NCBI GenBank assembly: GCA_026390655.1
Contig: JAPLFN010000120.1
Coordinates: forward strand, 1 to 38,252
Length of the DNA stretch: 38,252 nt
Origin: Candidatus Kapaibacterium sp.
Lineage (GTDB): Bacteria; Bacteroidota; Ignavibacteria; Kapaibacteriales; Kapaibacteriaceae
Direction: 5' to 3'
Positions 9,702 through 34,579 of the stretch are shown piece after piece; the stretch's first letter is position 1, and each line of letters opens with the position of its first letter. A program made the translations under genes and the position numbers. The notes beneath the pieces are model-generated. The model saw only the letters and a list, made by a program, of their open reading frames with translations. It ran no database searches and was not told the DNA's origin.

Positions 9702-9727
9702 ACGGATAGTGCTCGCCCGTATTGGGT

Positions 9728-11477: not shown

Positions 11478-11494
11478 GGACGAAGTTACGGAGG

Positions 11495-11522: not shown

Positions 11523-11531
11523 AAATGCATT

Positions 11532-12524: not shown

Positions 12525-12669
12525 GACCATCTCCATAATACTTGACGTAGCCATTTCGAAGTTCGGTTCAAGTTCTATTTCGACGGCAATATCCACTTCT
12601 TTCTCTTCACATTCAACCCTTAGGTAGCATCGCTCCTTGGTTCCGGAAATTGACGTTTAAGACTCTGTA

Positions 12670-19915: not shown

Positions 19916-20186
19916 TTTCTTATTTCCTTCGGGTGTAGCAGTCAATTGTAGACGGCCGGAAAATCTGTGTCAATGTTACAGCGATTTCAACTTGCAGATA
20001 CCTTGACAAAACCTTTATTCGACAGTCGGTGCGTGAGGCAAGACATTCTAACCGAGGACGATTCACCACGACGATGAACGCGAAACAGCATACTACGGAT
20101 ACTGATCCGCCTTATGTGTTAATACGGTATAAAGTTCCTAGCTTGCTACGATTCTTCAGTCTTCAAGCTGGTTAAGGACGTATTCT

Positions 20187-20371: not shown

Positions 20372-20818
20372 TTAATACAACGGCAACACGTCTGCATAGA
20401 CAATGCGTTTGTCGAGGGTGAAGTCCATATCGCCCCCTCCATCAGCATTCTTGTTGCCAAGACTGAGTGCGCGTAGGCGGTTGTCGAGTGGGTCAGAGAA
20501 GAACTGTTCGTACTCCTTGATCACAACGCGATGCTGCGTACCGAGAACGCCGCCATCAACACGAAGAGTACCGCCCCACATGTTTGCGGCGGGAATACGG
20601 TCAATGCGCTGTGACACTACGGGCGTCCACCCAAGATCGTCGCCACCTTCAGATGGGTTCCGCTTCTCGATGGTCACCTCAATCTCACTGCCTGTTTGAC
20701 CCGTGGTGTTGATTCGATATGTAGGCCCAACTACTTGCACGTTGATCGTAGAACCATCGGCGTCGATCGATGCCGTTGCTTGACGGTCGGGTGGAGGCGG
20801 ATGAATGGATAGTACGAC
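20372..20818 (-). pseudogene. C-terminal part of the large partner protein, in the -1 frame
   Basis: Frame is open from 20818: PPDRQATASIDADGSTINVQVVGP...RVVIKEYE...RIVYADVLPLY; no RBS or ATG of its own. Confidence 0.7.
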
Positions 20819-23800
20819 TCACCAGGGTTGATGGTAACGTCACAGAACCATAGTTGACGCTCGGTATCATAGTGTGGCTTGTAGGCCACCACGGTGAATC
20901 GTTCTGTAACACCAAGCTCCTCAAGAGAAACTCCGCTTTGAATCACATCTGCATCGGCAAAGTTTGCGGCAAGAGGTGTTGAATCAGACGGTGTTGGAGC
21001 GCTCAACCAGATCGGATCAAGACCCCATTGCGTTACGTACGGCGTGTGGCTCTCCGGAATGTCGACTTTCGAGAGCGCCATCGATCCTAGGACGGTGCCC
21101 TTCGTGGCAAGTGCTCCTCCGTCCTTGAGATATAGCGTTCCCTTGAAGTCCTTACCGCCGCCTCCACCTCCGCCGGTTCCAGGTGTGAACTTCTGGCCCG
21201 TGTACAGAACAATCCCAACCATCTCCTCATTGCCGGATGAGTACCACGTGCGCTCCATCCAAATACGCAGACCGCCACCCTTACGTGTAGATGTTACGAC
21301 GTTGCCAGTAAGAACTTTTTCGTTTTCTACCCACGTGAATGATGGTATCACATACAAGAGTTTTACAGCATCAGGACGCTTAGAGCTAAGAATGTGGAGT
21401 GCCTTGCCTACGCCCTTGCGTGTAAGGTTTGCTTGATCCTTATTGATCGACTCCGGCATGTACTCTCGGAACAGGGTAGTGGCCGTAGGGACGTATGTAA
21501 CATGACGATGCTTTGTATCGCCAAACTCCTGTGTCTTCTCCGCCATGAGCTTGTCTACTGCGCGGTCTTCCACATGCTGGTCATAAAAGTACGATCGCTG
21601 CTGAAGTTCTTCTGGTCCAGGCTTGTTAAGATTGTCTTCCTTCATCATCCACTCTGTATTCATGTCGATCTTCTGCGTTGTTCGACCATGAACGTAGGTG
21701 TCGCTGATGTTGATCGTTGCATTCGTTCCACCGAATTCACGAAGCGCAACCACCGCCGCTTTCACTTCTGGTTTTTTAAGGGGCTTCTGGGTTGCGTGCA
21801 CAAGATTCAAAACTCGGCCCGGTGTTATCAGCCACGAAAGTCCTCGCGATGCAGCTGCGAGTGCAGCTCCGGCAATGCCCGCCGCTTGTAAGGTTCCCTT
21901 GTGCCCGAGTAAGTCCAGATTCTGATCTGCTTCAGTTTGTTTCTCGCCAAGTGAGCTACTGAACAAGATCTTTGCTTGCTCGCCCTTAGGAAGCATGATA
22001 GTTAATGTGCGCTGTCCAAGATCCCACGTGGGAGCACCGGATCCTTCTGCGAGCTTGATAATGATGCTACGTATCTCGGGCCATACGTCAATCCCGTCAA
22101 AGACCACGGTAACGACGCCGGAGGCTGATGCGACACTCGCCATATTCACGCCAGCGAGAGTGACCTCCATGAGCTGACTCGCTGTAACACCAGGAACACC
22201 GGAAAGCGTAAAGCCACGCGCCAGCGGATCTGGCAAATATGGCGGAACTGCTGACGGACCAGGAACGTATGGGTAGTTGATCGCATTTTCTCGTGCGTCG
22301 CCTGCGGGTGGCACGTTGTCCGTTGCTTCCGGCTTAAGATCTCCGGTAACTGTGCGAGTGTACCAACGAGTTGGAAGCTGCCCGCTCTTCTTTACGATCA
22401 GGTCGTAGGTCGGCACGTCGCCCTTGAGTTTCCCCTTTGGAGTAACATCAAAGAATCCGTGGCGCTCGCACGTTTGTTGAGCGGCAAGGGGAGGATAGAC
22501 GTGACGTTCTGAAGCCTCTGTTGTAGGAACTTCATCAGCATCGTTCTCACTAGCATTGTAATTGCGGATGACCATTCGCTCCAGAGACTCGCCCTCTATC
22601 GGGTGTCTCTTCAGCGCAAGTATCGGCGATACGATCGGGTCCCAGCGCAGGTAACGCACAAGCGCAGTTGTGCATGAAATGTCATCGGGGGCGATCTCGT
22701 TCAAATGAGGACCGTTACCCAGCGCGTCCACCACGCGTGCACGCATCCGATAGCCCCTGCCGTACCGTAGTCGAGGCAGGGAGCCCTTCATAACGGTAAT
22801 GCTGGATTCAATCTGATAGTCGTAGTCAGATGGAGGCGATTGCTTCTTTGTGTCGGGCGCGATCTCATCTTCTGTTCCGATGTGCTGACCGATCAACGGC
22901 GCAACAAGACTCCAGCCTTCCCATTGCATCACGGTTTCGTGAGCGTACAGCGAACGCAAGGATGGCGTGTCGTCGGAGCCAACAGGACGTGAAGCACCGA
23001 AGGTCATCACTCCCTCTTCGTCTGCAACGGAAACGCCCTTGGTCTTTAAGTCGCCGGTGGCATTCGGGAACGTGTACGTAGCGTTGCGTCTCATCAACGA
23101 ATGCCACTTCTTTGAAACATCGTCCCAGACGTCAATTCTGAAGCCACGCAAGAGATCGTCTGCGTAGAGATTGACTTCTGTGTCAGTGACAAGTTTGTTG
23201 TAATTCTGCGCGCTGCGAATAAGAGACTTTGCAAGCTTTAATCCGCGGTTGACGCGGATCAATTGCAGTCCTGTTCCGCGCACTGCCGGTGGTGTTGCAT
23301 CCGACGCAGAATCAAGAGTATCAAAGGTCATCTTCAATCGGTGCAGCATGCCACGCGTGTATTGCAGCGTCTTAAGCGCTGCAGCATCAACATCAATTTG
23401 GATGATGTCAAAATGACTTGCATCGTCCAGACAAAGAACAGCCCCCCTTATCTCAGAATCCGGTAGGGGGCGAGGAAGGAACTGCCAATACTCAGGAGCA
23501 CCTACGCGGTCGAGTCGGTATGCTACCCATGGCGTTGTATTCTTAGTGCCTGGAGTCTTGGGTGACGGGAAATCAACGAGGCAACGTAGACGGCTGACGT
23601 CAGTGAAGCCCGATGGAATCTCGAACTCCACATGCTGAACAAGACCCAGCTTGCGAAGCATGATCGGATACTCGCGCATAAACGAGATCACCTGATGAAA
23701 GTCGTAGGTGGGCCGTGCGATCTTTGGGCGACCAACGCGACGCTGAATCTTATCACCCTTTTTGAGTCCGGGTTTGTCTACACTGTAGTTTCTCGCCGTG

Positions 23801-24540
23801 TGGAAGATCTCTGCCATCAAGAGTCCACCTACGGGCTTATCGTAATCGACGGGCCGAAACAACATCCGCTCAGCCTTTGATGGAACCTCTATTGGACGCT
23901 TATTGATCTCACGGACGGCTCCCTTTGCTGTGTCACCTTCATTCATCCGCTTCGCAGTGTTCGCCATGCCCTGAGACTCCCATGAACTCTTGAGCTGACG
24001 CAGACCCGCTTCGTCTTCATCTGTTGGTGTAAGATCTTTCATCAGATCCATTACCTTGGGCAGCTCAGTTAGAACTCCAAAGTTGGACTTTGTCTTCTTG
24101 AACTTCGATAGGACAACGTCAATTTTTGGAGCTGTAGAAAATTCCTTTGCAAGCGTGACGTATGCGGCGTTGACCGAGTCCATCACGTTCTTCACTGGGA
24201 ATGATACTACCTGAAAATCGGTGAACGGGCGATACTCAAATGGGCGCACAAGCGTTGTTGGCGCAAAGATCGCCTTCCACGTTTCCGAGTCCGCAGCATC
24301 ATCCTTCTGCGTTTGATCCGTCGGCTTTACCTTGATGCCGTCGAAGTCGAGAGTGACCTTGATACCTTTCAACGTTTCCGGCCAATTCAGCCAGTCCGGA
24401 TAGTCGTTCAAAGTACGAGGGGCAGTAGTTGCTTCTTGCAGCTTTGGTGTAACGCTGATCGCTACGGAGAGGTACGTTCTTCCGCTGCGTTGTTCAACGT
24501 CATACGGTATTGCGATCCATTGGAGTTCCTGTGTAGCCAT
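20731..24540 (-). CDS. Large uncharacterised beta-rich protein (1269 aa as read, ~1400 aa if rejoined), no signal peptide
   Basis: GAGGAGG before ATG 24540, 4 nt after the upstream stop; conserved-looking blocks WEGWSL, LPRLRYGRGYRMRARVVDALGN, YLPDPLA, GGGLRIWMERTWYSSG, QWGLDPIW. Confidence 0.85.
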   Translation of the reverse strand: MATQELQWIAIPYDVEQRSGRTYLSVAISVTPKLQEATTAPRTLNDYPDWLNWPETLKGIKVTLDFDGIKVKPTDQTQKDDAADSETWKAIFAPTTLVRPFEYRPFTDFQVVSFPVKNVMDSVNAAYVTLAKEFSTAPKIDVVLSKFKKTKSNFGVLTELPKVMDLMKDLTPTDEDEAGLRQLKSSWESQGMANTAKRMNEGDTAKGAVREINKRPIEVPSKAERMLFRPVDYDKPVGGLLMAEIFHTARNYSVDKPGLKKGDKIQRRVGRPKIARPTYDFHQVISFMREYPIMLRKLGLVQHVEFEIPSGFTDVSRLRCLVDFPSPKTPGTKNTTPWVAYRLDRVGAPEYWQFLPRPLPDSEIRGAVLCLDDASHFDIIQIDVDAAALKTLQYTRGMLHRLKMTFDTLDSASDATPPAVRGTGLQLIRVNRGLKLAKSLIRSAQNYNKLVTDTEVNLYADDLLRGFRIDVWDDVSKKWHSLMRRNATYTFPNATGDLKTKGVSVADEEGVMTFGASRPVGSDDTPSLRSLYAHETVMQWEGWSLVAPLIGQHIGTEDEIAPDTKKQSPPSDYDYQIESSITVMKGSLPRLRYGRGYRMRARVVDALGNGPHLNEIAPDDISCTTALVRYLRWDPIVSPILALKRHPIEGESLERMVIRNYNASENDADEVPTTEASERHVYPPLAAQQTCERHGFFDVTPKGKLKGDVPTYDLIVKKSGQLPTRWYTRTVTGDLKPEATDNVPPAGDARENAINYPYVPGPSAVPPYLPDPLARGFTLSGVPGVTASQLMEVTLAGVNMASVASASGVVTVVFDGIDVWPEIRSIIIKLAEGSGAPTWDLGQRTLTIMLPKGEQAKILFSSSLGEKQTEADQNLDLLGHKGTLQAAGIAGAALAAASRGLSWLITPGRVLNLVHATQKPLKKPEVKAAVVALREFGGTNATINISDTYVHGRTTQKIDMNTEWMMKEDNLNKPGPEELQQRSYFYDQHVEDRAVDKLMAEKTQEFGDTKHRHVTYVPTATTLFREYMPESINKDQANLTRKGVGKALHILSSKRPDAVKLLYVIPSFTWVENEKVLTGNVVTSTRKGGGLRIWMERTWYSSGNEEMVGIVLYTGQKFTPGTGGGGGGGKDFKGTLYLKDGGALATKGTVLGSMALSKVDIPESHTPYVTQWGLDPIWLSAPTPSDSTPLAANFADADVIQSGVSLEELGVTERFTVVAYKPHYDTERQLWFCDVTINPGESYYPFIRLHPTVKQRHRSTPMVLRSTCK

Positions 24541-24544
24541 GATA

Positions 24545-27500
24545 TCAGGCCTCCTCATAGTCAAAACTTGAACAATAGAGTTCCCAGAGCGATGGCTCTG
24601 GTAGTGCGTCCTTGAATGTCGGATCGCCGTCGGAGCCCTTTAGTTGACGTTCTACGGTAACGCCTACGCTAAAGCTGAAGAACAATATCTCGATCTCTAC
24701 TTCGATGGTAGCAACACCAAAGACCTTGCCGTTGCTTTGCCATGTGAGTTTCAACTCAAACAACAAATTGATGTGGATGAGACCGAGAACGGAAAGGTTT
24801 CCTGTCAGTCGGAAATAGCCGGTAAGCTCCGATTGACTCACAAGCTTGCCTTCGATCTCTTTCTGCTCAAGCTTGTAATAGATGCCGGCCATCACGCTTG
24901 CGCCGCCAGATGCTATCCCGCAATCGAATGCGAAGTTGCCTCCAAATTCGAACGCGGCCTCAAGCATGCGCACACCCGATGGTGTGATCTCTATGCCGAA
25001 GAATCCGCCCCCTGCAAACATCATAATTGTCAGGCGGAACGGATTATCCTTTGTGCAGAACGCGAAATAGGCGGAGAAGGGGCGACCATCAAATGGTATC
25101 GTGATGCTCATGAGGAAGGCCATGTTCTGCAAGGAGAACACACCTACTGTCACGTTCGGCAAGCCGATCGTCATCGAAGCGGTGATGCCCGTTGGAAGTA
25201 CGCTGAAGTCAAATGAGAACCCAACGCCACCGCCACCACCACCCTTGGGAATGAGATCCTTGAGCTTATTGACGAACGATAGCGGACCAGCAAACTCTAC
25301 GCTCTTGATGTCCGGGTTGATCGATGGTTTCTCGCCGATCTTTGCCGAGAAGGAGATCTTGTTGAACGTGATGATGAGGAACTGTGCCGCACCATCGCCA
25401 ATGAGATTGATGATGAAGTTCGAGAGCGATCCGTAGAGTTTTACCTCCGGTGGATCCAGGTTGAGCTTCTTGATGAACTCAGCCTTGAGATAGAGGAACG
25501 CTTTGTCATCTTTATTGGTAGCCGACGGATCGCGAGGCATTAGGATGTTGCCTGGCGAGCCTTTGATCTCTGTTTGCCATTCGTAGACGAGCTGCAGTCC
25601 TTTCTTCAACGACTCAAGATTGCCCGCCACTTCCTTGTACTTGTTTGCAGCTTCGTTACCCGCCTCGATAAGGGGCTCCAAGGCTTTTTCAATCTCTGAC
25701 TTTAGTTCATTGGCCTTGTCTTCGATCCGTTTCTTCCACTCCTTGACGCGATCTTCCGCAGCTTTCTTTCCCGCAGTCACGTAGCTCTGAATCTCAGCCT
25801 TTACTGCGTCGACCTCTGCCTTCAGTGCATCCTTCGCTGCGTTCACTTCGGCAGCAACATCGCCGGCAAGTTTGTTTGCCTCCGCTTTTAGATCATCTGC
25901 CTTTGCCTTGATATCATTGATGTCGTCCTTAATTCCGAAGTCATCCTTCTTGTCGAGACCCGGCATCTTATCGAGATTATTCAGGATGCCTTGCACAAAA
26001 CTCAGGATATCCTTGAGTGTGATGTCTCCGAGGATCTTGCTCTTGAGCAGACCTTCGAAGTACTGCATCGGATCGAAGTTCCCGACGGCAGCTGCAGAGT
26101 TCGCAAGGTCGTTTACTTTTCCCTGGATCGGACCCATGAGGCGTGACAACGCGTCAACGCCAATGCTCGGTGCAGCAAGGCCGCCGGCCTTGTCCGACTG
26201 AGCACCGAAGTCCATCTGCAATGAATCCTTAAGAGCAAGGAACATTTGCGACGGATTCTTAATGTCGGCTACGTTAACAGGTGCCCCCTTGGCAACGGCA
26301 GCGCCGGCTTCAAACGCGTGTGCTAAATACTTCTCATAGAACTCAACTGTGTTACTGCCGCTCGTTCCTAACAACTCTTGTACCTTTTCGATCCGCACTG
26401 TGGACTTCTCCATGCGCGGAAAGAATCTTGGTGTTTCAACAGGGATGGAGTCGTTCGAATACCCCATCAAGAAAAACTCTTGAGTGGGTAGTGCAGTGTC
26501 GCCGCGTTTGATCGAAGGAGCAAAGGCAACTTTCTGTCCGCTCAAGTTTATCGTTCGACGAGACATCAGATTGATGTAGGAGTCGGGCTTGTTAGCACCA
26601 CCCTTAACACCGGTGAACGTTTGAAGTGCTGCTGGACTTGTAGGGCCAGCTGCATCCGGCGACGTGATGAAGGTGAGAGGTATACTGAATTGAATGGTGT
26701 TGTTGTCCCAGTCAGTACCGACACAGTTCCACAATACATCTTGTGGTGAACCACCTCCAATGGTGAACATCGGCCAGAAGCTATTTCCGGAGAACAATGT
26801 TGGTTGCGATGCGATAAGGGGCTTCGGCAGTTCGAGATTCGGTGTCACCTTCGTGGTGATCGTGATGCGCCGGAATGGCAACTCTCTACCTTGATGATCC
26901 ATGCCTGTGAGACCGTCAGCCGGAAACTCTCGCGTTGGTTCACGGAGCATGATGAACATCCGCTGCATGAGATAGGCAGCCATGTCTCCGCGAGGTGTGC
27001 GAACGAACTTGCGTTCCGTTTCCTTAACGAGTGTGGCGCGGTTTCCAAACGGAAAGAGATATCCCTTGTAGGCAACACGAACAAAGCTGTCTCTGCCCTG
27101 TGCGCCGCGTTGGACCCATGATTCTACTTCCAAGTCATCGGATGCGGCAGGATCCCACGATCCCGTACCATCCATCCATGCGCCAAGGGAAGTGAGCATG
27201 AGCCGTTTTACCTTTACCGGCTCCGGCTCGGTCTTGATCATGTTGTAGTTGGATGTAAGATCTACGATCTCACTGCGATCACGGCGATTAAGCGATGTCC
27301 GAAAAGGTCGCTCTTTATAAAGGGGCTGCATTGTACGTGCAGTCCCATAGTCGGGTGACCAGATAGCCCTTACAGTGCGGAAGTATTCGGAATATTCGTT
27401 TACAGTTCCGTCTGTGTGACGAACGCCAAGACGTGTATGCCAAAGTTCCGCACGACGTTGGTCCTTAGAGAGTCCGCTATCTTTTCTGTGCGCAAAACCT

Positions 27501-29620
27501 GCATACTTATTGGGCGACAAGAAAAGTCGATACGGATATTCGATAGCAGTTTCATCGAGGTCGGGCCACTTAATAGGGGGCTTCGCGTTATAGTATGACA
27601 CGATCTCATTGATCGTGGATTCGCTGAGAGATGTAGCAAGATCCGCTTGCGTCTCAAATGATTCCTTGACCTTGGCGCTCCTGGAGGTAAGCCTACTCGA
27701 AGCGCCGGAATTGAACGAGTACTTCTTTGAGGCGAATCCCTTTGACTTTACGAGAAGCGTTGTGGCTTTTGCATCCTTCTTCTCAACATCTGCATACGAC
27801 CCAAATTTCAGGTACGTGCTCTTTGCCAATGCGCCCATTACGAATGGCATGTCAGGGGGCTTCGCACTCGGCGACACGGCGAGAGTGAACTTCGACCAGT
27901 CGAGAAGTCCTTCTATGCTGTACGAGCCCGTGTATCCACCCGGCAACTGAAACACAAGGCGAGAAGGATGCGCCATGGCTGCATCGATCGGAGGATCGAG
28001 AAGGGGCTCATCACTACTTGTCTTTTTTGATGCGTCGGCCGGCGGATACGATGAGTTGTCTTTTGGTTTGTTCTGCGTGTAAAAGAACGCACGCTCTGCA
28101 ATGTGTTGCGGTTGAAAATGAACGATAAGTTTTGACCCGGCTCCGCTCGCAGAGAATGTGCCGCCGGCCTTGTTCAGCGTGATGCCCTGAAACTCAAACG
28201 TGAGAACAAGCATGTCGTCGGGTCTGATGACCGTAACGCGTGGGTTGCTCGGCATTTTGAACTTGACCTTGCCGATATTGCCAAGCGACTTCTTCACCTT
28301 GCTCGTGATCGTTGCATCCTTCACCTGCGACTGCACGGACATCTGCTGTTTGAAGTCCACCTGCAGCGATGCGAGGTGAATCTGCGACTTCGGAAGCGCT
28401 GACGTTTTCACGGCACTCGTCAGCAAGGCGAGCTGATAGAGCGGATGCGTGGTTGTAGGCTCTGTAACTGCGCCGGAGACCGGGATCGAATATCGCTTGA
28501 GACCGGGAGCTACGATGAAACGGGTAATCTCATTGCCTCGACGCTCGATCTCCAAAGGTGGGATACCTTCACTGTCTCCAAGTTCAACAGAAACGCCTTC
28601 GATGTGTGACCACTGTGCATTGCGAGCATAACGGGCTACGAGGCCTTCGTGGCGCCCCTTCTCCGTGTCTGTCCACGCATATCGCAGATCACGCAATGGT
28701 AGATTGATACCTGCTTCCGCCACGTTCATGGACGTTGCGCCTTCGCGGCCCGACTCCAACATTCCCGTTGACCGGCCCTCGCTGGTGATCTCTACAGAGC
28801 ATGCATCGAACGACTCGTCATTGCTCACGAGTTGCCAATCAGCAAGTCCAGTTGCATCTACGCGGACATCCCATTTCTCACTGCCGCGATCAAGTCGAAC
28901 AAAAGATCGGCTCCCATTCGCGCCCATCGTGAGAGAGGGCGCACTTTTGGCAAGAGTCATGAGTGCGAACTTCTTCCCAAACAATGTCCGCCCGTCAGTA
29001 GTGAGCATCGTGGCTGCCGCAAACGATATTGTCCACGACGGACGAAACGTTGCAGACCCTGCGCCAATTGCTACAGCATTGCCATCTCCAAGACGAGATT
29101 GCAGCGCGGACGTGCGATAGAAGTTTGCTGTTGTGTTGTCCAATAGCCACGATACAAAGTCAACACTCTCTGTATTTCCGAATGACGCAAATCGGAAGGT
29201 TGCCTGCGCGCTTATGCCGCGCGTAATATGTGCCTCAACATCGGCGCGGATCTGTGTACCCGGAAACAACGCGTTGCGCAGATGGACAACGATTCCAGCG
29301 TCCGTTTCTGCCACATCAACAAATGGTAATCCGTCAAAGAGGTCAGGATCCACGGACCAACGTTCTATGCCGGCAACAAGAAAAACAACGCGCTTGCCTT
29401 TACGAAGCATCTGATACGACGTGCTGACGGCTGCGTGAACTGCGTTTACCAACGGGCCGGCCGCAAGAGTAAGAGCGCCAGCGAGTTTGATCGCATGCCG
29501 GCGGGTAAGGCTGAAAGCCTCTGGTTGATGAACGAGGGAGGCCGTAGTGCGGGTCTCGATCGGAATCCGCGGAACCTGCGCACGCTTAAGTGACGCAAGC
29601 GACAACCGTTGTCGGTTCAT
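24545..29620 (-). CDS. 1691-aa uncharacterised beta-rich protein with twin-arginine signal, helical repeat insert and beta-meander C-terminus
   Basis: GAGGTG before ATG 29620; LTRRHAIKLAGALTLAAG...VHAA; blocks ELWHTRL, MLTSLGAW, GRDSFVRV..KGYLFPFG, GGGFFGI, AFEFG. Confidence 0.88.
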   Translation of the reverse strand: MNRQRLSLASLKRAQVPRIPIETRTTASLVHQPEAFSLTRRHAIKLAGALTLAAGPLVNAVHAAVSTSYQMLRKGKRVVFLVAGIERWSVDPDLFDGLPFVDVAETDAGIVVHLRNALFPGTQIRADVEAHITRGISAQATFRFASFGNTESVDFVSWLLDNTTANFYRTSALQSRLGDGNAVAIGAGSATFRPSWTISFAAATMLTTDGRTLFGKKFALMTLAKSAPSLTMGANGSRSFVRLDRGSEKWDVRVDATGLADWQLVSNDESFDACSVEITSEGRSTGMLESGREGATSMNVAEAGINLPLRDLRYAWTDTEKGRHEGLVARYARNAQWSHIEGVSVELGDSEGIPPLEIERRGNEITRFIVAPGLKRYSIPVSGAVTEPTTTHPLYQLALLTSAVKTSALPKSQIHLASLQVDFKQQMSVQSQVKDATITSKVKKSLGNIGKVKFKMPSNPRVTVIRPDDMLVLTFEFQGITLNKAGGTFSASGAGSKLIVHFQPQHIAERAFFYTQNKPKDNSSYPPADASKKTSSDEPLLDPPIDAAMAHPSRLVFQLPGGYTGSYSIEGLLDWSKFTLAVSPSAKPPDMPFVMGALAKSTYLKFGSYADVEKKDAKATTLLVKSKGFASKKYSFNSGASSRLTSRSAKVKESFETQADLATSLSESTINEIVSYYNAKPPIKWPDLDETAIEYPYRLFLSPNKYAGFAHRKDSGLSKDQRRAELWHTRLGVRHTDGTVNEYSEYFRTVRAIWSPDYGTARTMQPLYKERPFRTSLNRRDRSEIVDLTSNYNMIKTEPEPVKVKRLMLTSLGAWMDGTGSWDPAASDDLEVESWVQRGAQGRDSFVRVAYKGYLFPFGNRATLVKETERKFVRTPRGDMAAYLMQRMFIMLREPTREFPADGLTGMDHQGRELPFRRITITTKVTPNLELPKPLIASQPTLFSGNSFWPMFTIGGGSPQDVLWNCVGTDWDNNTIQFSIPLTFITSPDAAGPTSPAALQTFTGVKGGANKPDSYINLMSRRTINLSGQKVAFAPSIKRGDTALPTQEFFLMGYSNDSIPVETPRFFPRMEKSTVRIEKVQELLGTSGSNTVEFYEKYLAHAFEAGAAVAKGAPVNVADIKNPSQMFLALKDSLQMDFGAQSDKAGGLAAPSIGVDALSRLMGPIQGKVNDLANSAAAVGNFDPMQYFEGLLKSKILGDITLKDILSFVQGILNNLDKMPGLDKKDDFGIKDDINDIKAKADDLKAEANKLAGDVAAEVNAAKDALKAEVDAVKAEIQSYVTAGKKAAEDRVKEWKKRIEDKANELKSEIEKALEPLIEAGNEAANKYKEVAGNLESLKKGLQLVYEWQTEIKGSPGNILMPRDPSATNKDDKAFLYLKAEFIKKLNLDPPEVKLYGSLSNFIINLIGDGAAQFLIITFNKISFSAKIGEKPSINPDIKSVEFAGPLSFVNKLKDLIPKGGGGGGVGFSFDFSVLPTGITASMTIGLPNVTVGVFSLQNMAFLMSITIPFDGRPFSAYFAFCTKDNPFRLTIMMFAGGGFFGIEITPSGVRMLEAAFEFGGNFAFDCGIASGGASVMAGIYYKLEQKEIEGKLVSQSELTGYFRLTGNLSVLGLIHINLLFELKLTWQSNGKVFGVATIEVEIEILFFSFSVGVTVERQLKGSDGDPTFKDALPEPSLWELYCSSFDYEEA

Positions 29621-29675
29621 AGTCCCACCTCTCCCTTGGTACATGACGCCGAAAGTCAGACCGCAAAACAACGCT

Positions 29676-29704
29676 ATCGACGGGACAAATAAAAGGTTTG
29701 TTCC
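29676..29704 (-). promoter_or_regulatory. ECF-sigma-type promoter GGAACA-N17-GTCGAT for the left operon
   Basis: Minus strand reads ttGGAACAaaccttttatttgtcccGTCGAT. Confidence 0.55.
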
Positions 29705-29729
29705 AAGTATAGTTTCAACGCGTATGTTT

Positions 29730-29758
29730 GGAACCTCACCAGCGTCTGTGGTGTCACA
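29730..29758 (+). promoter_or_regulatory. ECF-sigma-type promoter GGAACC-N17-GTCACA for the right operon
   Basis: Plus strand reads ttGGAACCtcaccagcgtctgtggtGTCACA. Confidence 0.55.
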
Positions 29759-29791
29759 TCGCCTGGTTTCATTTTCGGGGAGGGTAGCCCG

Positions 29792-32605
29792 ATGGTTCGT
29801 CTTTATGTTTCGCTCGCAGTAGTGCTTCTGGTAAGCGCACTAGGCATTCGAGGACAGTCGCCTGAGATGGTCAGTGTGCGCCTCAGTCAGCCCCCTCCCA
29901 ACCAGCTCCGCGTTGCGGATTTATGGAAGGTGCAGCTCACAAACACTTCCGGACGTCCAGTTCGTGTGTATTTACATGGCACAGCAGAGGAGACATCCAT
30001 CCCAGACGGCATTATTGCGGACGCCACAACAAAGATCTTCGAGATTCCAGTAGGCACCATTGTGGTCACGGGTTCTCAGGTGCAGCCGATCAAGGTGGAC
30101 CAATACAATCAGAAGTACCGGGATGCACTGCTCCGCACTGGCACCGTGCCAACAGGCGATTATCAGATCTGCTGTGAAGTGATCAGTGCAGAGTCGGATC
30201 AGATCCTGGGAAAGGACTGCAAGTTCACAACGGTCAATCGTCTCTCTCAGCCAATTCTCATTGCTCCGCCCGACGAGTCGGAAGTGCCCGGTGGATACCC
30301 TGTGTTCACGTGGATGTCATCTGTACCTCCGGGTCCGGGGCAACGCATTCTCTATCAACTCCGCATTCATGAGATCTTTGCTACCCAAACGCCACAAGAT
30401 GCTACTCAACGCAACCCGGCGTTTCTCGATATCAGAGACCTCAACAGAACGATCTACCAGTATCCGGTTTCTGCCCGTCGTTTCACCGTGGGTCAGAAGT
30501 ACGCGTGGGTGATCTCCGCGTATGAACAGAGTGGTTCGTCTATCATCAACCTCGGAGTCAGCGAAGTGTGGACGTTTGTCTACAGGCCCCTCGTGAACGA
30601 CACGTTGCCTGCTGACCGGCGAATTCGGGCGGCCGTAGTTCCCGAGCTAACAGAGATCTGTCCGGGAGAGAACTGGGATTTTGAGATAGGATCGTTGGCC
30701 TGCTGGACGGTTGAAGGCGATGCGTTTCAAGATGACCCTGTGAACGGCGAACATCCTGTGCTCGGCAATCTCGGTCAAAACGGTCGCTTCTGGGTAACCT
30801 CCTACGGAGCCTTTGACGCCGATGGAGCTATGGGCAGAATGCAGTCTCAGGAATTTCGCATTCAGACCAGTATGGTCGGCTTTCTTGCAGGGGGCTCAGC
30901 AAGCCCTGAGGCAGCCGTTGAGCTCTACGTGGAGAAACTGGCCAAGGACACGTTCAAACTGCCAGTGCGTAAGCTGCCGGGGCTCCCAGGTGAGTTTTAT
31001 CTAGCATACACAACCGGCGTTCCCAAGGCAAAAGCCGGCTCGAGTGAGCGGCTCGTACCTACGGCATGGAATGTGGTTCGATACATCAATCGGGCGGCAT
31101 ACATCGTTGTGAAAGACAGCGCGAAACTTGCACACATCAATGCCGACAATTTCCGATTCTTTGACCGAGAGAAACTCGACACAATCAAGTTGCCGGTTCT
31201 GATGATGGCTGCTGGTGAGCGGCATTCAATGGCGATGACGCCCGAGGAAAAAAGCCCCCTTCAACTCGTTAAAGATCTTGGCATAAGCGCAGCAGATTTC
31301 AAAGCCGGGAAGTCGGGCTTGGCAAATGAAGCCACGATCAATCAGGTGTCGATGGGACTAAAGGCAAAGAAAAATCTCGTAAGTCAGTTCGCCGGCGGTG
31401 GTAATGGCGATGCACCTCCACCAGCATTTAACGTGGTGGAGGCCAAGTTTGATCAAAAGGCATCACCATTCGCAAAGTACTTCCCACTTGCCGCCGTGGA
31501 TTCTAAAACCACGTTGTGGGGATGGGGCGACAATCTACGTGGCGAGCTCACAAAGGCCTACCCTAGTGTTGTTCCGGAACCAAAACCTCTTTTAAAAACG
31601 ATGAATGCCCTTGGCCTTGCCGCAGGGATGGATAACTCCTTTATCGTTGAGCGTGGAGGAACGGTGAAGGGATGGGGCTTTAACGACTACTGGCAATTGG
31701 GCGTGAACGATCGTGTGATCAAGAACGTGCCTACGGTGCTACCCGGACTGAGTGGCGTTATTGATGTGGCAGCCGGGTCTCGCCATGCAATGGCGTTAAC
31801 GAGTGCCGGCGATGTTTATGTATGGGGCTACAATCGAACGTTTGAGTGTGGTTTTTTTGGTGGCAAGCTCAACGCCACAACGGGTCAGCTCGAGAGCATT
31901 GACAATCCAACGGTTGCTCGTAAACATCCGATGTTGTCGAACATCCGTGCAATTGCTTGTGGCCATTCGCACTCCCTCGCACTTACCATGAGTGGTGTCA
32001 TCGCAGGATGGGGTGTTAACGGAAGTGGTCAAACGGGCTTTGATGACGATTACCCGTTCGTTCCCATCCCACTACCCATCACGATCGATTTGGGTACCAT
32101 CGCGGGTTTTAAACGTGGTAAGACAGTGATAGACATTGCTGCCGGGGATGCTCATTCGATGGCATTAACAAATACGGGTGAAGTGTTTGTGTGGGGCAGC
32201 AACTCGAGTGGCCAGCTTGGAGACGGGACCACTATTGATCGCCATACACCTAAGAAGGTGGATGGACTGGTGAACATCCGCGCCATTGCAGCTGGTGGAG
32301 CGTTCTCACTCGCGCTAGATTCGGCGGGCGTTGTGTGGGCGTGGGGGAATAACATCCTCGGTCAGCTTGGCGATGGAACGAGATATGGTCGACTCAAACC
32401 GGTGAAGGTGTCGCGCATCGATGCCGTGCAAGGTATCGTAGCAGGTGGCGCCCACGCGATGGCCGTGCGTTCTGATGGAAGTCTTTGGACATGGGGACAG
32501 AATGGACTTGGCCAGATGGGAGAGGGGCCTATCATGAATCTCGTTCCGGTTCCTACAGATCCTCCTGTTGGGCCTCTGCGTGTTGAACGGCTAGCAATGC
32601 CATGA
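29792..32605 (+). CDS. Exported multidomain protein: TANFOR-like and Fn3-like N-terminus, CBM-like beta-sandwich, 7-bladed RCC1/BLIP-II propeller
   Basis: GGGAGG RBS; signal peptide; GTVPTGDYQICCEV, PVFTW, GQKYAW; DFEIG..WTVEGDAF; seven AAG..HS.AL...G.V..WG.N repeats. Confidence 0.85.
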   Translation: MVRLYVSLAVVLLVSALGIRGQSPEMVSVRLSQPPPNQLRVADLWKVQLTNTSGRPVRVYLHGTAEETSIPDGIIADATTKIFEIPVGTIVVTGSQVQPIKVDQYNQKYRDALLRTGTVPTGDYQICCEVISAESDQILGKDCKFTTVNRLSQPILIAPPDESEVPGGYPVFTWMSSVPPGPGQRILYQLRIHEIFATQTPQDATQRNPAFLDIRDLNRTIYQYPVSARRFTVGQKYAWVISAYEQSGSSIINLGVSEVWTFVYRPLVNDTLPADRRIRAAVVPELTEICPGENWDFEIGSLACWTVEGDAFQDDPVNGEHPVLGNLGQNGRFWVTSYGAFDADGAMGRMQSQEFRIQTSMVGFLAGGSASPEAAVELYVEKLAKDTFKLPVRKLPGLPGEFYLAYTTGVPKAKAGSSERLVPTAWNVVRYINRAAYIVVKDSAKLAHINADNFRFFDREKLDTIKLPVLMMAAGERHSMAMTPEEKSPLQLVKDLGISAADFKAGKSGLANEATINQVSMGLKAKKNLVSQFAGGGNGDAPPPAFNVVEAKFDQKASPFAKYFPLAAVDSKTTLWGWGDNLRGELTKAYPSVVPEPKPLLKTMNALGLAAGMDNSFIVERGGTVKGWGFNDYWQLGVNDRVIKNVPTVLPGLSGVIDVAAGSRHAMALTSAGDVYVWGYNRTFECGFFGGKLNATTGQLESIDNPTVARKHPMLSNIRAIACGHSHSLALTMSGVIAGWGVNGSGQTGFDDDYPFVPIPLPITIDLGTIAGFKRGKTVIDIAAGDAHSMALTNTGEVFVWGSNSSGQLGDGTTIDRHTPKKVDGLVNIRAIAAGGAFSLALDSAGVVWAWGNNILGQLGDGTRYGRLKPVKVSRIDAVQGIVAGGAHAMAVRSDGSLWTWGQNGLGQMGEGPIMNLVPVPTDPPVGPLRVERLAMP

Positions 32606-34560
32606 TGCGAGCGATCTGCTTGATCCTCTTTCTTGTGTCGGTGAACGTGGCGGCCCAAACCAGCTCATCACAGCCTGACAAACCATGGGTCGTCTTCGGT
32701 GCTGATCAAGGTGACGCACCGGTGATTTTCACTGGTGGATATCGTTTGCTGGGTCAGCTTTCGAATCGCTCAGGTTCGTTTCAAGCTAAACCCCCTGACT
32801 TTTGGCGTGTAGAGCTTACACCGTCGATGATCATTTATGGGATCCCGCTTACGGCCAATCTGCTTCTGTCTTCAGAGCAACAGAGTATTCAGCAAACCAT
32901 TGACGCGTTTTCGATCTCGTTAGATCCCGACGCCGTGAAGAGAATCATTGCACAAAGAGCGTATCGCGAAGTAGAGAACTTTGCGATGTCGGAAGCAGGG
33001 TGGATGTTAAGTGAATACGATAACATCAAGGATTCCCTAGCGCAGTACGATCCGCAACAACTTGAGCAGCTCGACGCTATCCGGCAAGTAGAGCAAATGC
33101 GTGACGTGGCTAATGGCAACATCACCAACTACGAAGATGTTCTCACAAAGCTTGGCGTGATGAGTGATGTGGAGAGTGTGATGGCCGCATTACCTAAGGT
33201 TGGAGTAGGAACAGTGTTCCCGTCGTTCACGCCCCTTAGTCTTAGCGGAGCGCGTATCGTAGGGGGGAATCTAGAGTGGAATCCCGGCGGGACGTTCTAC
33301 ATTCACGGTGTATTCGGTACAACGCAGCGCCCACTCGCACGTGTGGATTCAACACGAATTGACACGACGATCTATCGCACTACGGACAATTCGGACTTTG
33401 GCCGCAGACTCTATGGTGGACGCATCGGCTATGGCACGCTCGGCGGCGATCACGTAATGCTCACTGGGGTATACACGGTGGATGACAAGACAAGTCTGAC
33501 GGTTACGGACACAACATCGGCCCTGACGCCACAAAAGAATATGCTCTCGACTGTAGACTTCCGTGTTGAACTTATTCCAAGTACGTGGACAATGGAAGGA
33601 GAAGTTGGGGGCTCGCTCACCATCGGTGATCTCAATGCGCCGCAGTTCGGTGCAAACACTATACCCGATTTTCTCCTCGTACTTGTTGATTCAAATGCTT
33701 CGTCGTACGTAGACTGGGCTGCGAAACTTTCCACAGCCGTTAACGTGCGAAGTACCGGCACCCGATTCACAGGCTCCGTTCGCCGAATTGGTGCGGGTTA
33801 CCGAGCTCTTGGCGTACCGAACCTTCGTGTTGACGTGCTGCGGTTTGATGTAAAGCTGGATCAGTCCTTGATGAAGAGACAGATGACAATCGGATTGTTC
33901 GCACGTCAGGATCGCGACAACCTTATTCCCATTAAACGATCAACGTCAACACTGTTGTCCATCGGTGCAACGCTGGGGCTCAACTTCAGGGGGCTTCCAT
34001 ATTTCCGCATCTCGTATTCGCCATATGTGCAGGAGAGCAACGCATCAGATCCGTTGTTGCAATACGTGAACCGTACAACAATGTGGAACGTTGCAGGGGG
34101 CTATGCATATCGCTTGAGTGATCTGAGTGCAAGTACCAATGTGACGGTGGCCCGTCAGGACGCAACCACAAAGGACAATCTGTATGACTACGCAGTAACA
34201 TCTGCAAACGTTAGTCAAACGGTGGGCCTCGTCATTCCGTTGTCGCTTACTGCCGGGCTGGGATGGATTCACCAGGAGGCTGTTCAAAGTGCTAGCACGA
34301 CGATCATCACCATCGATGCATCTGCATCGTACCTATTGTCTGATGTACTCAGCGCAAACGGTGGCCTGAGCGTCGCGCTTGATGATACGTATGGAAACCG
34401 CAATGGGTTTTTCATCGGCTTGAACGCACATCTCGGGAAACTTGCAGACATTGACCTGCGTGCAGAACGGACCCTCTTCAATGAAAGACTTACTCCAGCG
34501 GTGCTTGGTGGTACGTATCAAGAAACAGTGGGGCGGTTAACAATCAGCAGAAGTTGGTGA
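32602..34560 (+). CDS. Uncharacterised outer-membrane beta-barrel protein
   Basis: ATGA overlap with the upstream gene; signal peptide; many amphipathic strands; C-terminal aromatic residue (LTISRSW). Confidence 0.75.
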   Translation: MMRAICLILFLVSVNVAAQTSSSQPDKPWVVFGADQGDAPVIFTGGYRLLGQLSNRSGSFQAKPPDFWRVELTPSMIIYGIPLTANLLLSSEQQSIQQTIDAFSISLDPDAVKRIIAQRAYREVENFAMSEAGWMLSEYDNIKDSLAQYDPQQLEQLDAIRQVEQMRDVANGNITNYEDVLTKLGVMSDVESVMAALPKVGVGTVFPSFTPLSLSGARIVGGNLEWNPGGTFYIHGVFGTTQRPLARVDSTRIDTTIYRTTDNSDFGRRLYGGRIGYGTLGGDHVMLTGVYTVDDKTSLTVTDTTSALTPQKNMLSTVDFRVELIPSTWTMEGEVGGSLTIGDLNAPQFGANTIPDFLLVLVDSNASSYVDWAAKLSTAVNVRSTGTRFTGSVRRIGAGYRALGVPNLRVDVLRFDVKLDQSLMKRQMTIGLFARQDRDNLIPIKRSTSTLLSIGATLGLNFRGLPYFRISYSPYVQESNASDPLLQYVNRTTMWNVAGGYAYRLSDLSASTNVTVARQDATTKDNLYDYAVTSANVSQTVGLVIPLSLTAGLGWIHQEAVQSASTTIITIDASASYLLSDVLSANGGLSVALDDTYGNRNGFFIGLNAHLGKLADIDLRAERTLFNERLTPAVLGGTYQETVGRLTISRSW

Positions 34561-34561: not shown

Positions 34562-34579
34562 TAGCACACTAGCACACTA
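34562..34579. repeat. Octamer TAGCACAC x2 between convergent stop codons
   Basis: tagcacac tagcacac ta fills the 16-nt gap. Confidence 0.5.

Follow-up and report, generated by a model that had tools for sequence, protein, structure and literature searches.

Layout of the locus

The window, a 38,252-nt stretch of a Candidatus Kapaibacterium sp. contig, was subjected to ORF calling, which confirmed all four of the large genes that the initial annotation had assigned to two tight divergent operons. On the minus strand, the giant protein G1 is encoded at 24545..29620 (ORF 24545-29671; the ATG at 29620 gives 1691 aa), and its stop precedes the ATG (24540) of G2 (20372..24540) by 4 nt. On the plus strand, an accessory protein with RCC1 repeats (29792-32605, 937 aa) is followed by a barrel candidate of 652 aa (32602-34560), whose gene start overlaps the stop of the RCC1 protein gene by 4 nt. 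This spacing and overlap, together with the 171-bp region between the operons (29621..29791), fit the proposed arrangement. The intergenic region was read as containing an imperfect inverted repeat with 12-nt arms at 29700-29711 and 29723-29734 (complementarity 83%); one arm is kept in both 80% relatives but not in more distant ones. Of the mirror-image promoters described for this region, the imperfect symmetry was retained, but a scan for sigma-70 sites found none.

SurA-like and PPIase genes (minus strand, 34577..38004; Pfam Rotamase and SurA_N) abut the locus, as had been noted, and this adjacency is limited to close relatives with the same divergent gene order. The host genome encodes SprA, in agreement with the claim that it possesses a T9SS, and none of the four proteins matched a T9SS CTD in Pfam or NCBIfam at E<=0.01, also as claimed.

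G2 occupies two frames in the window, listed as minus-strand ORFs of 1277 aa (20731-24564) and 122 aa (20372-20740), and would be about 1430 aa if intact. The apparent frameshift is an assembly mis-join at 20793..20794 rather than a biological feature, because 97 nt missing from the window are present in the aligned L002, an 80%-identical relative, and independent contigs from run X1 break at this place, one stopping at 20792 and one starting at 20794. When translated by hand, the 64-letter loose end of one X1 contig continued the G2 frame with ALVRFQPYSL, the residues that L002 has there.

The G1-G2 pair

G1 consists, in order, of a conserved N-leader, a Tat-like signal, a lineage-specific N-domain, a beta-rich conserved core, a helical hairpin, and a C-terminal beta domain. 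A total of 170 homologs were recovered at E<=1e-3 from 7999 scored candidates, and neither G1 nor G2 had a sequence family match in Pfam, NCBIfam, or PDB, with no G1 match above the Pfam or NCBIfam cut-off. A twin-arginine signal (29429..29506, minus strand) was read from the sequence as TRRHAIK, a hydrophobic stretch, and AVHA; about 38 aa separate the G1 start from TRRHAIKLAGALTLAAGPLVNAVHA. TatC is encoded in the host genome, and the description of G1 as a Tat-signal protein of 1691 aa was upheld. Two arginines followed by a hydrophobic stretch were found within the first 100 aa of 64/70 homologs of at least 1500 aa, compared with 7/50 shorter ones. In L070 and L051, the Tat signal directly precedes the core and the N-domain is absent. 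Because 43 of the 50 short homologs are signal-less and the Streptomyces forms begin right at the core, export of G1 is, judging by sequence, not universal across the family.

The G1 model (residues 510-1708) had a pLDDT of 75.6. Its long hairpin of two helices of about 50 aa (25604..25933, minus strand; DSSP helices 738-789 and 795-847 of the model) is the source of an "apolipoprotein" match (PF01442) that lies below threshold at 26.1 bits (cut-off 90). The C-terminal domain (24620..25597, minus strand) is Gly/Phe-rich and amphipathic, with long strands in which hydrophobic and polar residues alternate; a profile search with it recovered 4144 cluster representatives at E<=1e-3. When model residues 967-1175 were compared using VIA-align, most of the 50 matches listed were outer-membrane barrels, with Z scores of 10-12.8, including CymA (Z 12.8, rmsd 6.8, 199 aligned) and OprC (Z 11.5, rmsd 3.5, 184 aligned). 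In the model, this likeness is at the level of fold only. The sheet may be open and curved rather than a closed pore, since halves of 22-strand barrels fitted with a smaller rmsd (3.2-3.8 Å) than 12-14-strand barrels did (6.8-8 Å).

G2 is a multi-domain beta-sandwich protein with 106 homologs, and its model (pLDDT 82.2, pTM 0.74) gave fold matches of Fn3/Ig type only. It carries no signal, consistent with its annotation as a signal-less partner of about 1400 aa. In 77/80 loci, G2 immediately follows G1 in the same orientation; the other three loci end just after G1. The loci span more than 10 phyla, with records from Kapaibacteria, Ignavibacteria, Chlorobiota, Bacteroidota, Acidobacteriota, Actinomycetota, Chloroflexota, Armatimonadota, Gemmatimonadales, Verrucomicrobia-type bacteria, and Polyangiaceae, confirming the initial remark that the giant pair has counterparts in other phyla. 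Plasmid-borne copies were found in Bacillus, Streptomyces, Cupriavidus, Rhizobium, and Diaphorobacter. Occurrence is patchy: G1 is present in 10/301 genomes of the phylum and in 0/5 other genomes of the same genus. Conservation is strong over the whole length of both proteins, with many invariant charged and aromatic residues. A Pfam search of the pair found no toxin domain, and the neighbors in 28 loci were unrelated housekeeping genes, with no conserved immunity-like gene among them.

The accessory protein and the 652-aa barrel candidate

The RCC1 assignment of the accessory protein was supported by Pfam (PF00415, 185.6 bits; PF25390, 258.7 bits). The repeats form a C-terminal beta-propeller (31499..32602, plus strand) that varies among lineages and is swapped for other or short C-termini in relatives. 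In contrast to these differing C-termini, the N-terminal module (N-module; 29855..30601, plus strand) is kept across 12 relatives and comprises a TANFOR-like and an Fn3-like domain. Its description as TANFOR-like holds as remote homology: the first 265 aa or so matched TANFOR-like N-termini in hhalign (99.5%, E 2.7e-23) as a divergent module, and the TIGR02542 model itself scored only 14 bits (cut-off 67). Other N-module proteins beside barrels include giants of 1658 and 4053 aa without a Pfam domain.

The barrel candidate has a signal peptide, an N-terminal helical region, and the C-terminus ...SRSW. It belongs to no Pfam or NCBIfam family, and Pfam found no POTRA, Omp85, or PorP/SprF at E<=0.01; its paralogs gave weak outer-membrane barrel matches in Pfam. 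The superfamily occurs in 104/301 genomes of the phylum. The N-module is predicted to sit in the barrel lumen as a plug: ipSAE reached 0.89, 0.90, and 0.89 (best of three controls, 0.11), against a mark reached by 58/80 solved complexes and 2/110 mismatched pairs, counts that apply only approximately here because own alignments were used. The complex runs agreed in at least 91% of contacts, partner pLDDT was at least 83 (83-84), and every second residue along many barrel strands made contact in the predicted complex. This prediction supports part of the initial interpretation. The idea that the barrel exports or anchors the giant complex did not stand as worded, because the predicted ligand is the RCC1 protein's own N-terminus.

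Genomic context agrees with such a pairing. A barrel match was found near N-module matches in 74/116 cases within 5 kb and 81/116 within 15 kb, on the same strand in 81/81, and the two are naturally fused in two genomes (G177:C4, 954 aa; G049:C20, 1045 aa). Adjacent pairs are present in 60/301 genomes of the phylum; where a giant N-module protein adjoins a barrel, the barrel usually comes first.

Linkage of the modules and candidate functions

The locus consists of two separable modules, each of which is also found alone. Both the N-module and the barrel were present in 21/80 G1 loci in four gene orders, and G164 supplied a fifth. Co-occurrence of the modules, in these five orders, is seen in Kapaibacteria, Ignavibacteria, and Chlorobiota; related genomes are not independent, and the true number of independent linkage events is smaller. 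Among the linked orders are operons on a single strand whose genes are spaced or overlap by only a few bases (accessory-G1-G2-barrel and G1-G2-barrel-small module). Barrel matches at E<1e-200 were found in exactly 6/301 genomes, and G1 was present in 6/6. The anticipated co-occurrence of the four families was therefore observed, but not a single indivisible four-gene system: most phyla have G1-G2 without the barrel, and the barrel/N-module pair lies beside G1 in only 7 of 60 genomes. Contig C46 of the window genome carries another N-module/barrel pair but no G1, and G139 has G1 on one contig and the pair on another.

The initial annotation would have been refuted if all four genes mapped to a known system. 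None of the known systems compared covers or explains all four, and the locus is more suggestive of an envelope or export apparatus not yet described than of any known secretion system. LptD-LptE and TonB-dependent transporters are plug-and-barrel outer-membrane complexes, and the module of about 250 aa, separate or fused, predicted in the lumen here resembles them; the natural fusions also have the N-module-to-barrel order of TonB-dependent transporters. However, they share no sequence family (Plug and TonB_dep_Rec were absent in Pfam), and the plug here bears a large variable extension. In Bacteroidota, giant adhesins are held by a barrel protein encoded next to them, as in SprB-SprF. As in this system and in TpsB/TpsA, a dedicated barrel here adjoins a giant secreted protein whose N-terminal module of about 250 aa is conserved, but none of the POTRA, Omp85, and PorP/SprF families was detected in this barrel (E<=0.01), and according to the prediction the module remains in the lumen instead of passing through. 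Type Va autotransporters share with G1 a signal, a large passenger-like part, a helical segment, and a C-terminal barrel-like domain, and the fold matched the AIDA-I, EspP, and NalP translocators (VIA-align, Z 10.2-11.3). In contrast to them, the G1 signal is Tat-type rather than Sec-type, no Autotransporter Pfam match was found, the family extends to monoderm Actinomycetota and Bacillus, and the partner gene G2 is obligatory.

For the TANFOR polymorphic toxins of Bacteroidetes (TIGR02542), Jana, Salomon and Bosis (2020, PMC7073777) propose export by the T9SS and describe some loci with a separate cargo gene immediately after the TANFOR gene; the word "barrel" has 0 occurrences in their paper. 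These toxins resemble the accessory protein in having a Sec-type signal, a conserved N-terminal module, and then an Fn3-like domain and a variable C-terminus, and their loci with a separate cargo gene match the arrangement in which a short N-module protein is followed by G1, G2, and the barrel. They differ in that the accessory C-terminus is an RCC1 propeller rather than a toxin domain, an immunity gene and a CTD are absent, and the linked partner here is a dedicated barrel. Tat hitchhiker pairs (PaoABC, hydrogenase small/large subunits) likewise combine one twin-arginine partner, here G1, with an adjacent partner that always lacks the signal, here G2. However, G1 and G2 are several times larger and without cofactor-binding domains, and many G1 family members are wholly signal-less.

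Our tentative reading, with a probability of roughly 0.45, is that G1-G2 is a Tat-exported, membrane-inserting complex tethered or presented by a plug-in-barrel anchor. What is shown or predicted is the linkage of the genes, their signals, the folds, and the fit of the plug in the barrel; binding of G2 by G1, hitchhiking through Tat, insertion into a membrane, toxicity, and physical contact between the modules are inferred. G1 would fold in the cytoplasm and bind signal-less G2, giving a pair of about 340 kDa, which would be unusually large for Tat. The pair would then cross the inner membrane through Tat by hitchhiking on the G1 signal. Export of a signal-less partner together with a Tat-signal partner is established, according to the abstracts of PMC4273604 and PMC10924467. 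Because the hairpin and the amphipathic barrel-like sheet of G1 would then engage a membrane, G1-G2 is most likely a two-component complex that inserts into membranes, forms pores, or resembles a toxin. The accessory protein would be exported via Sec, its N-module of about 250 aa plugging the dedicated outer-membrane barrel and its variable C-terminus (here a middle domain and the RCC1 propeller) staying free. At the outer membrane, G1-G2 would be tethered, presented, or handed on by this plugged barrel in the lineages with both modules, namely Kapaibacteria, Ignavibacteria, and Chlorobiota.

G1-G2 might instead have a structural or adhesive role at the surface without being toxic, for instance as a giant adhesin or S-layer-like scaffold anchored by the TANFOR-like/barrel pair. 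The array of Fn3/Ig-like beta-sandwiches in G2, N-module giants without Pfam domains (as is often the case in surface fibres), RCC1 propellers as binding modules, and the lack of a detected toxin domain or immunity gene are consistent with this proposal. We consider it unlikely, as full-length conservation with invariant residues is unlike repetitive adhesins, signal-less pairs occur in monoderms, and the distribution is patchy and plasmid-borne. A role in lipid handling, in which the hairpin and curved sheet form a lipid-binding groove or cavity for envelope lipid traffic, comparable to those of large lipid-transfer or bridge-like proteins, and the barrel its outer-membrane end, is similarly doubtful; a beta-groove lipid conduit was the second idea of the initial annotation. 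The sub-threshold apolipoprotein-type match, the adjoining SurA-like genes, and weak Foldseek matches to OrfX1-OrfX3 (E 0.012), P47 (E 0.016), and, both at E 0.015, the LPD-3 complex and microsomal triglyceride transfer protein would suit such a role. However, these Foldseek matches all have probability <=0.23 and TM <=0.11, no AsmA/TamB-type family was found in Pfam, monoderm Actinomycetota and Bacillus have the pair as well, SurA adjacency is confined to close relatives, and patchiness is unlike a core envelope function. DUF6603 likewise gave no Pfam match.

If G1-G2 acted intracellularly, perhaps as an effector of defence or abortive infection that perforates the cytoplasmic membrane with its beta-sheet, the Tat-like segment would be a membrane anchor and the barrel operon would be unrelated to this action. 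The signal-less short forms, the compact, patchy, cross-phylum, plasmid-borne two-gene module, and the HNH, helicase, and HD genes in its vicinity on the Bacillus plasmid could be explained in this way. We nevertheless judge such a role quite improbable: the PADLOC matches on G1 were no more than coiled-coil noise and G2 had none, the neighbors in the 28 loci are not defence islands, well-formed Tat signals recur across architectures, and an outer-membrane module is linked to the pair in five gene orders. The two operons could also be mere neighbors, their modules functionally independent and their co-occurrence reflecting the shared ancestry of one clade. That either module is far commoner alone, and that pairs lie apart from G1 on C46 and in G139, would be expected in that case. 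This too appears very unlikely, because the linkage persists through five gene orders, including single-strand operons, and the barrel matches at E<1e-200 come only from G1-bearing genomes.

Gene order and the interrupted frame of G2

The four genes formed two tightly spaced pairs that diverged from a common 171 bp spacer (29621-29791). On the minus strand, the open reading frame of the first giant protein, G1, spanned 24545-29671, and the ATG at 29620 gave the 1691 aa form that is also found in public collections. The gene of its partner, G2, followed at 20372-24564 (minus strand) with a spacing of 4 nt and appeared as two pieces in different frames, 1277 aa and 122 aa long. On the plus strand, the gene of the 937 aa accessory (RCC1) protein (29792-32605) overlapped that of the 652 aa candidate barrel (32602-34560) by 4 nt. 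This ORF map agreed with the positions, the tight spacing and the 171 bp shared region described in the initial annotation, and the Pfam scan recovered the SurA-like and PPIase genes that it had placed next to the locus (34577-38004). It had also stated that none of the four proteins carries a T9SS C-terminal sorting domain (CTD) while the host possesses a T9SS; accordingly, no sorting-domain match was obtained at E≤0.01 and SprA was encoded in the genome (2.63 Mb in 131 contigs, 92% complete), of which the window is one entire 38 kb contig. The mirror-image promoters proposed for the spacer were recovered only in part. An inverted repeat was present, imperfect, with 12 nt arms that were 83% complementary, and no site for a sigma-70 promoter or a terminator was detected when 29621-29791 was scanned. 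Each arm appears similar to the Bacteroidetes -7 element (TAnnTTTG); one arm was kept in both 80%-identical relatives and lost in more distant ones.

Three genes at 12670-19945 (1662, 221, and 492 aa) were located between G2 and a gene block at 6044-12596. This block lay directly after G2 in relatives such as loci L006, L007, and L010, and from this comparison the three genes look like an insertion in the window genome. Two of them gave weak matches to T9SS sorting domains in Pfam/NCBIfam.

Sequence comparison indicated that the window contig is mis-joined inside G2 at 20793/20794, with a loss of 97 nt. Exactly this number of nucleotides was missing relative to the 80%-identical locus L002, where G2 is a single open frame of about 1425 aa. 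In run X1, a possible source sample of the window in which 0.96 of the sampled words were present, two independent contigs were found, one ending at 20792 and one starting at 20794, and the second carried 64 extra letters that were absent from the window. Thirty of these letters, translated by hand, read ALVRFQPYSL in the frame of G2, which equals the L002 residues at the same place and fits the family consensus LALARYQPxS. Because the X1 contigs break at 20792/20794 and the extra letters continue the frame as in L002, the G2 of the organism is most likely intact. Similar faults may occur elsewhere in this assembly.

Distribution and predicted folds of the giant pair

A search with G1 yielded 170 homologs at E≤1e-3 (7999 candidates scored) and a search with G2 yielded 106; the names given in the sources were either "hypothetical" or mis-cues due to the coiled coil. 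When one genome per species was scanned, 352 G1 relatives were detected, and among the best 80 of these 352 loci tblastn placed G2 directly downstream of G1 on the same strand in 77; the three loci without a G2 match (L020, L043, and L062) ended within about 0.8 kb after G1. By record title, the loci belonged to Kapaibacteria, Ignavibacteria, Chlorobiota, Bacteroidota families, Acidobacteriota, Actinomycetota (many of them Streptomyces), Chloroflexota, Armatimonadota, Gemmatimonadales, Opitutus/Horticoccus, and Polyangiaceae, and protein matches added Alcaligenaceae, Symbiobacteriaceae, Roseobacter, Nevskia, and Bacillus thuringiensis. The suggestion that similar gene pairs recur in other phyla was therefore confirmed, with the pair present in more than 10 phyla. 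Within its own phylum it was sparse: G1 was found in 10 of the 301 sampled genomes and in none of five other genomes of the window's genus. Four loci (L003, L006, L010, and L013) labeled Didemnitutus, Hyphomicrobiales, or Bradyrhizobiaceae encoded a G1 of 52-80% identity in the same SurA-barrel-accessory-G1-G2 synteny as in Kapaibacteria, and the bins or labels of these contigs may be wrong.

Relatives of G2 were also detected on 15 plasmid records (Bacillus, 7; Streptomyces, 3; Cupriavidus, 2; Rhizobium, 2; Diaphorobacter, 1). On a Bacillus tropicus plasmid, a 1093 aa short-form G1, the C-terminus of which was 35% identical to that of the window (E 2e-57), was encoded directly upstream of a 1434 aa G2, both annotated as "hypothetical protein". 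Apparent G1-G2 fusions in Streptomyces loci proved to be ORFs in alternative frames, as is typical of high-GC DNA; the true genes are separate. No conserved third gene emerged beside the pair when all ORFs of the loci were clustered, and a Pfam scan of 28 neighbourhoods revealed only unrelated housekeeping genes at the flanks and no conserved neighbour.

Database searches gave neither protein a family, a structure, or a name. G1 had no NCBIfam match, and its only Pfam match was of the sub-threshold apolipoprotein type; the public name of one relative (P0002), Apolipoprotein A1/A4/E, was rejected, as PF01442 scored 26.1 bits against a cut-off of 90 and covered the hairpin only. G2 matched no family in Pfam, NCBIfam, PADLOC, or PHROGs. 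PADLOC returned coiled-coil noise for G1 and nothing for the other three proteins, and PHROGs returned the same noise for G1, RCC1-repeat matches for the accessory protein, and nothing for the barrel. The ESM Atlas held only unnamed "hypothetical" clusters, a Pfam scan of 28 diverse homologs found only Big_2 or propeller inserts, and no meaningful match to G1, G2, or the barrel came from sequence and profile searches of the PDB. In open-access text we found no paper on the G1 and G2 families, none on DUF6603, and none combining Kapabacteria, outer membrane, and Tat. The pair is thus a large piece of protein "dark matter", spread over the phyla named here and over plasmids of cultivable Bacillus, Streptomyces, and Cupriavidus.

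The Tat signal attributed to G1 held up. Its N-terminus (TRRHAIKLAGALTLAAGPLVNAVHA) contains, in the correct order, a twin-arginine motif, a hydrophobic region, and an AxA-type site; an RR pair followed by a hydrophobic stretch occurred within the first 100 aa in 64 of 70 homologs of at least 1500 aa versus 7 of 50 shorter ones, and TatC was detected in the window genome (220 bits). By sequence criteria G1 is a Tat substrate, its export being a prediction. Long forms begin with a conserved leader of about 13 aa, M-x-R-x-R-L-N-L-A-A-L-R (29582-29620 in the window), with the RR about 37 aa later. A loose version of this leader was found in 40 of 120 homologs, 39 of which also carried a Tat-like signal, and it could be a binding site for a chaperone or partner. 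Short forms start at the conserved core V-V-R-P-D-D-L-L; in the short forms of L070 and L051 a Tat signal directly precedes this core, and Streptomyces forms have no signal.

The AlphaFold model of G1 (residues 510-1708; pLDDT 75.6, pTM 0.63) consisted of a confidently modelled beta-rich core, two helices of about 50 residues each arranged as a hairpin, and, at the C-terminus, a sheet of about 18-20 strands, of which several extended over 20 residues. Foldseek against the PDB gave no row at E≤1e-3. In VIA-align, the lists of which were filled by one domain each for G1 and G2, residues 967-1175 of the model resembled outer-membrane barrels in most of the 50 rows listed, for example CymA (Z 12.8, rmsd 6.8, 199 aligned), PgaA (Z 12.1), and TamA (Z 11.1). 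The C-terminal sheet aligned with OprC at Z 11.5 (rmsd 3.5, 184 aligned) and with AIDA-I at Z 11.3 (rmsd 7.7, 187 aligned). It fitted halves of 22-strand barrels more tightly than whole 12-14-strand barrels; the modelled sheet may thus remain open or close only with partners. Along its strands, hydrophobic residues alternate with polar ones, and Gly/Phe motifs such as F-G-G-G-G-F-F-G are invariant. A profile of this domain was compared with 1.84 billion cluster representatives (clusters at 50% identity) and matched 4144 of them at E≤1e-3, in nearly every case at the C-terminus.

G2 behaved as the signal-less partner of about 1400 aa that had been described, with no signal in any aligned homolog. 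Its model (residues 9-1208; pLDDT 82.2, pTM 0.74) matched generic Fn3/Ig-type sandwiches only (best VIA Z 8.8, 93 aligned), and multi-domain arrays from the PDB, the viral BFVD library, and a VIA-wide search scored TM below 0.1. For a fold of the alpha-2-macroglobulin (A2M)/complement C3 type, a Foldseek match to Salmonella A2M had an E of 2.6e-5, but a probability of 0.30 and a TMq of 0.07, and no Pfam family was present. The many invariant charged and aromatic residues of G2 speak against a repetitive fibre and in favour of a specific fold and partner.

The accessory protein and its putative partner barrel

The RCC1 assignment of the accessory protein was secured by two models above their cut-offs, PF00415 (185.6 bits, cut-off 21.7, six stretches) and PF25390 (258.7 bits, cut-off 150). 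Among its relatives, only the first 265 aa or so (the signal and two domains, hereafter the N-module) were conserved; the C-terminus varied between an RCC1 propeller, a different beta-rich domain, and a short tail. The initial annotation had called this protein TANFOR-like. Curated family membership was not supported: TIGR02542 (TANFOR, T_forsyth_147) scored 14 bits against a cut-off of 67 (E 0.057), and no NCBIfam family matched the protein at E≤0.01. Remote homology did stand, since the accessory gene was the sole match of TIGR02542 in the 2.6 Mb genome (30101-30223, model positions 100-139) and hhalign aligned the N-module profile (A10) with TANFOR-matching N-termini (A11) over 246 columns at 99.5% (E 2.7e-23), the five comparator genes themselves matching TIGR02542 at just 28.7-35.6 bits, below the cut-off. 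Profile-profile homology together with a sub-cut-off model score makes the N-module a divergent TANFOR-plus-Fn3 unit, by sequence distantly within the TANFOR class and no member by the curated cut-off. The polymorphic-toxin layout of TANFOR genes was absent from the locus: no toxin Pfam family was detected, the C-terminus was the RCC1 propeller, and the next gene encoded the barrel rather than an immunity protein.

That next gene encodes a protein with a signal-bearing N-terminus (MMRAICLILFLVSVNVAAQ) and an aromatic C-terminal end (...TISRSW), and in eight of its paralogs an alternating residue pattern runs up to a final F, L, or I. The protein had no Pfam family at E≤0.01, no NCBIfam family, and nothing below E 0.15 in a PDB profile search; outer-membrane-barrel Pfam families matched the paralogs weakly (E 5e-4 to 3e-3). 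On these features it looks like an outer-membrane barrel. A TpsB/Omp85 translocator was rejected for want of any POTRA or Omp85 Pfam family at E≤0.01, and homology to the C-terminal domain of G1 was likewise rejected (hhalign probability 0.6%), as was homology between the N-domain of G1 and the N-module.

Across the phylum, the barrel superfamily was present in 104 of 301 genomes and the N-module in 75. A barrel match lay within 5 kb of 74 of the 116 N-module matches and within 15 kb of 81, on the same strand in all 81; 60 genomes carried an adjacent pair. In two genomes the N-module and the barrel were fused in one ORF (G177:C4, 954 aa; G049:C20, 1045 aa). We predicted the complex of barrel residues 20-652 with accessory residues 22-270. 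Three runs gave ipSAE values of 0.89, 0.90, and 0.89, compared with 0.11 for the best of three controls, and clearly passed the mark. Of 80 solved complexes 58 had attained this mark, as had 2 of 110 mismatched pairs, counts that apply here only roughly because our own alignments were used. Contacts agreed by at least 91% between runs, and the pLDDT was at least 83 for the partner and 83-84 for the barrel. The contacts fell on alternate residues of many successive barrel strands (e.g., 473-481, 486-494, 511-523, and 528-540), which we read from the contact-residue list as the lumen face, so that the N-module is predicted to sit inside the barrel. Such a pair would work like LptD-LptE or a split TonB-dependent transporter.

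One of the fusion ORFs (L091, G177:C4:5500-10000; 1428-4289, minus strand) contained, between its two N-module domains, a stretch of about 35 aa (residues ~219-254) matching elongation factor Tu (TIGR00485, E 5e-9). Chimeric assembly or capture of a fragment could explain this stretch.

Linkage of the two modules and possible roles

Among the best 80 of the 352 G1 loci, the N-module occurred in 23 and the barrel in 21, all 21 of which also had the N-module. The joint occurrence of the four families elsewhere, implied when they were described as one system, was thereby borne out, and in five gene orders: divergent as in the window (11 loci), G1-G2-accessory-barrel (L014, L015, and L016), short accessory-G1-G2-barrel (six loci and G049:C7), accessory-barrel-G1-G2 (L034), and G1-G2-barrel-small module (genome G164), the genes here being separated or overlapping by a few bases. 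A 971 aa gene upstream of G1 in G164 was considered as an N-module homolog, and homology was not found. Barrel matches with E<1e-200 came from exactly six sampled genomes, and G1 was present in all six; of ten genomes with G1, the pair lay beside it in seven, on another contig in one, and was absent from two, counts that are non-independent samples as the linked genomes are related. The linkage was restricted to the Kapaibacteria/Ignavibacteria/Chlorobiota branch, and G1-G2 stood alone in five Bacteroidota loci (L040, L041, L046, L047, and L051) and in all other phyla.

These data can be joined in one reading, to which we assign a probability of about one in four. TANFOR-type large proteins of Bacteroidota would not be T9SS cargo but would be held or exported by their own barrel, with the N-module as a lumen plug, and G1-G2 would be a new pan-bacterial, Tat-exported two-component complex, the C-terminal beta domain of which forms or inserts a membrane barrel, coupled to that route in one clade. 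The course of events that we consider most likely draws on the signals, the host Tat and T9SS genes, and both gene pairings, each shown or predicted, and on the predicted barrel-like fold of G1 and plug-in-barrel model. G1 would bind G2 in the cytoplasm and the two would cross the inner membrane together by Tat hitchhiking, a principle established for other pairs (PMC4273604 and PMC10924467). The accessory protein would cross via Sec and plug the barrel, its free C-terminal part would capture or present G1-G2 at the outer membrane, and the hairpin and sheet of G1 would then insert into a membrane.

For G1-G2 itself we favour a membrane-perforating, toxin-like role because the pair is accessory, patchy, and plasmid-borne and because the C-terminal domain of G1 resembles a membrane barrel even in monoderms. 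Monoderms have no outer membrane of their own. A further reason is that the TANFOR class carries toxins, with the cargo sometimes left to the next gene, according to section 6 of PMC7073777. Against such a role, no toxin domain and no immunity gene were found, the signal is absent from many G1 members, and the pair would be very large for Tat. Autotransporters have their parts in the same order as G1, but G1 lacks their defining family features: its signal is of the Tat type, no Autotransporter Pfam family is present, and homologs occur in Streptomyces and Bacillus, so that a classical autotransporter was rejected. For lipid transfer by a protein of the AsmA/TamB or bridge-like type, Foldseek matched G1 weakly to the LPD-3 complex (E 0.015, probability 0.20), and Pfam showed no such family in G1.

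For the accessory side, the main text of Jana et al. 2020 (PMC7073777) proposes T9SS export of TANFOR proteins and does not mention a barrel; we found no other substantive TANFOR paper in open-access text. The partner barrel, its phylum-wide adjacency, the fusions, and the predicted plug offer a concrete alternative to that hypothesis of TANFOR-class toxin export, a question raised in the 2020 text. If the joint reading were true, roughly one in five of the genomes sampled from the phylum would possess an outer-membrane route for display or secretion that had gone unrecognised. G1-G2 would then represent a new class of pore-forming agents, and a giant pair exported by Tat and equipped with a barrel-like membrane domain would amount to a new kind of membrane-active machine.

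The N-module proteins paired with barrels were often much larger. At L098 (839-5815, minus strand) and L099 (1219-13380, minus strand), giants of 1658 and 4053 aa were encoded directly after partner barrels and matched no Pfam family at E≤0.001, and open frames with an N-module reached about 6400 aa in the phylum search. By sequence, these giants appear to form a large class of Bacteroidota envelope proteins that lacks annotation. The window genome itself contained a second, diverged pair (L084, G000:C46:17500-21500), consisting of a 610 aa barrel and a 365 aa N-module protein with no G1-G2 adjacent to it.
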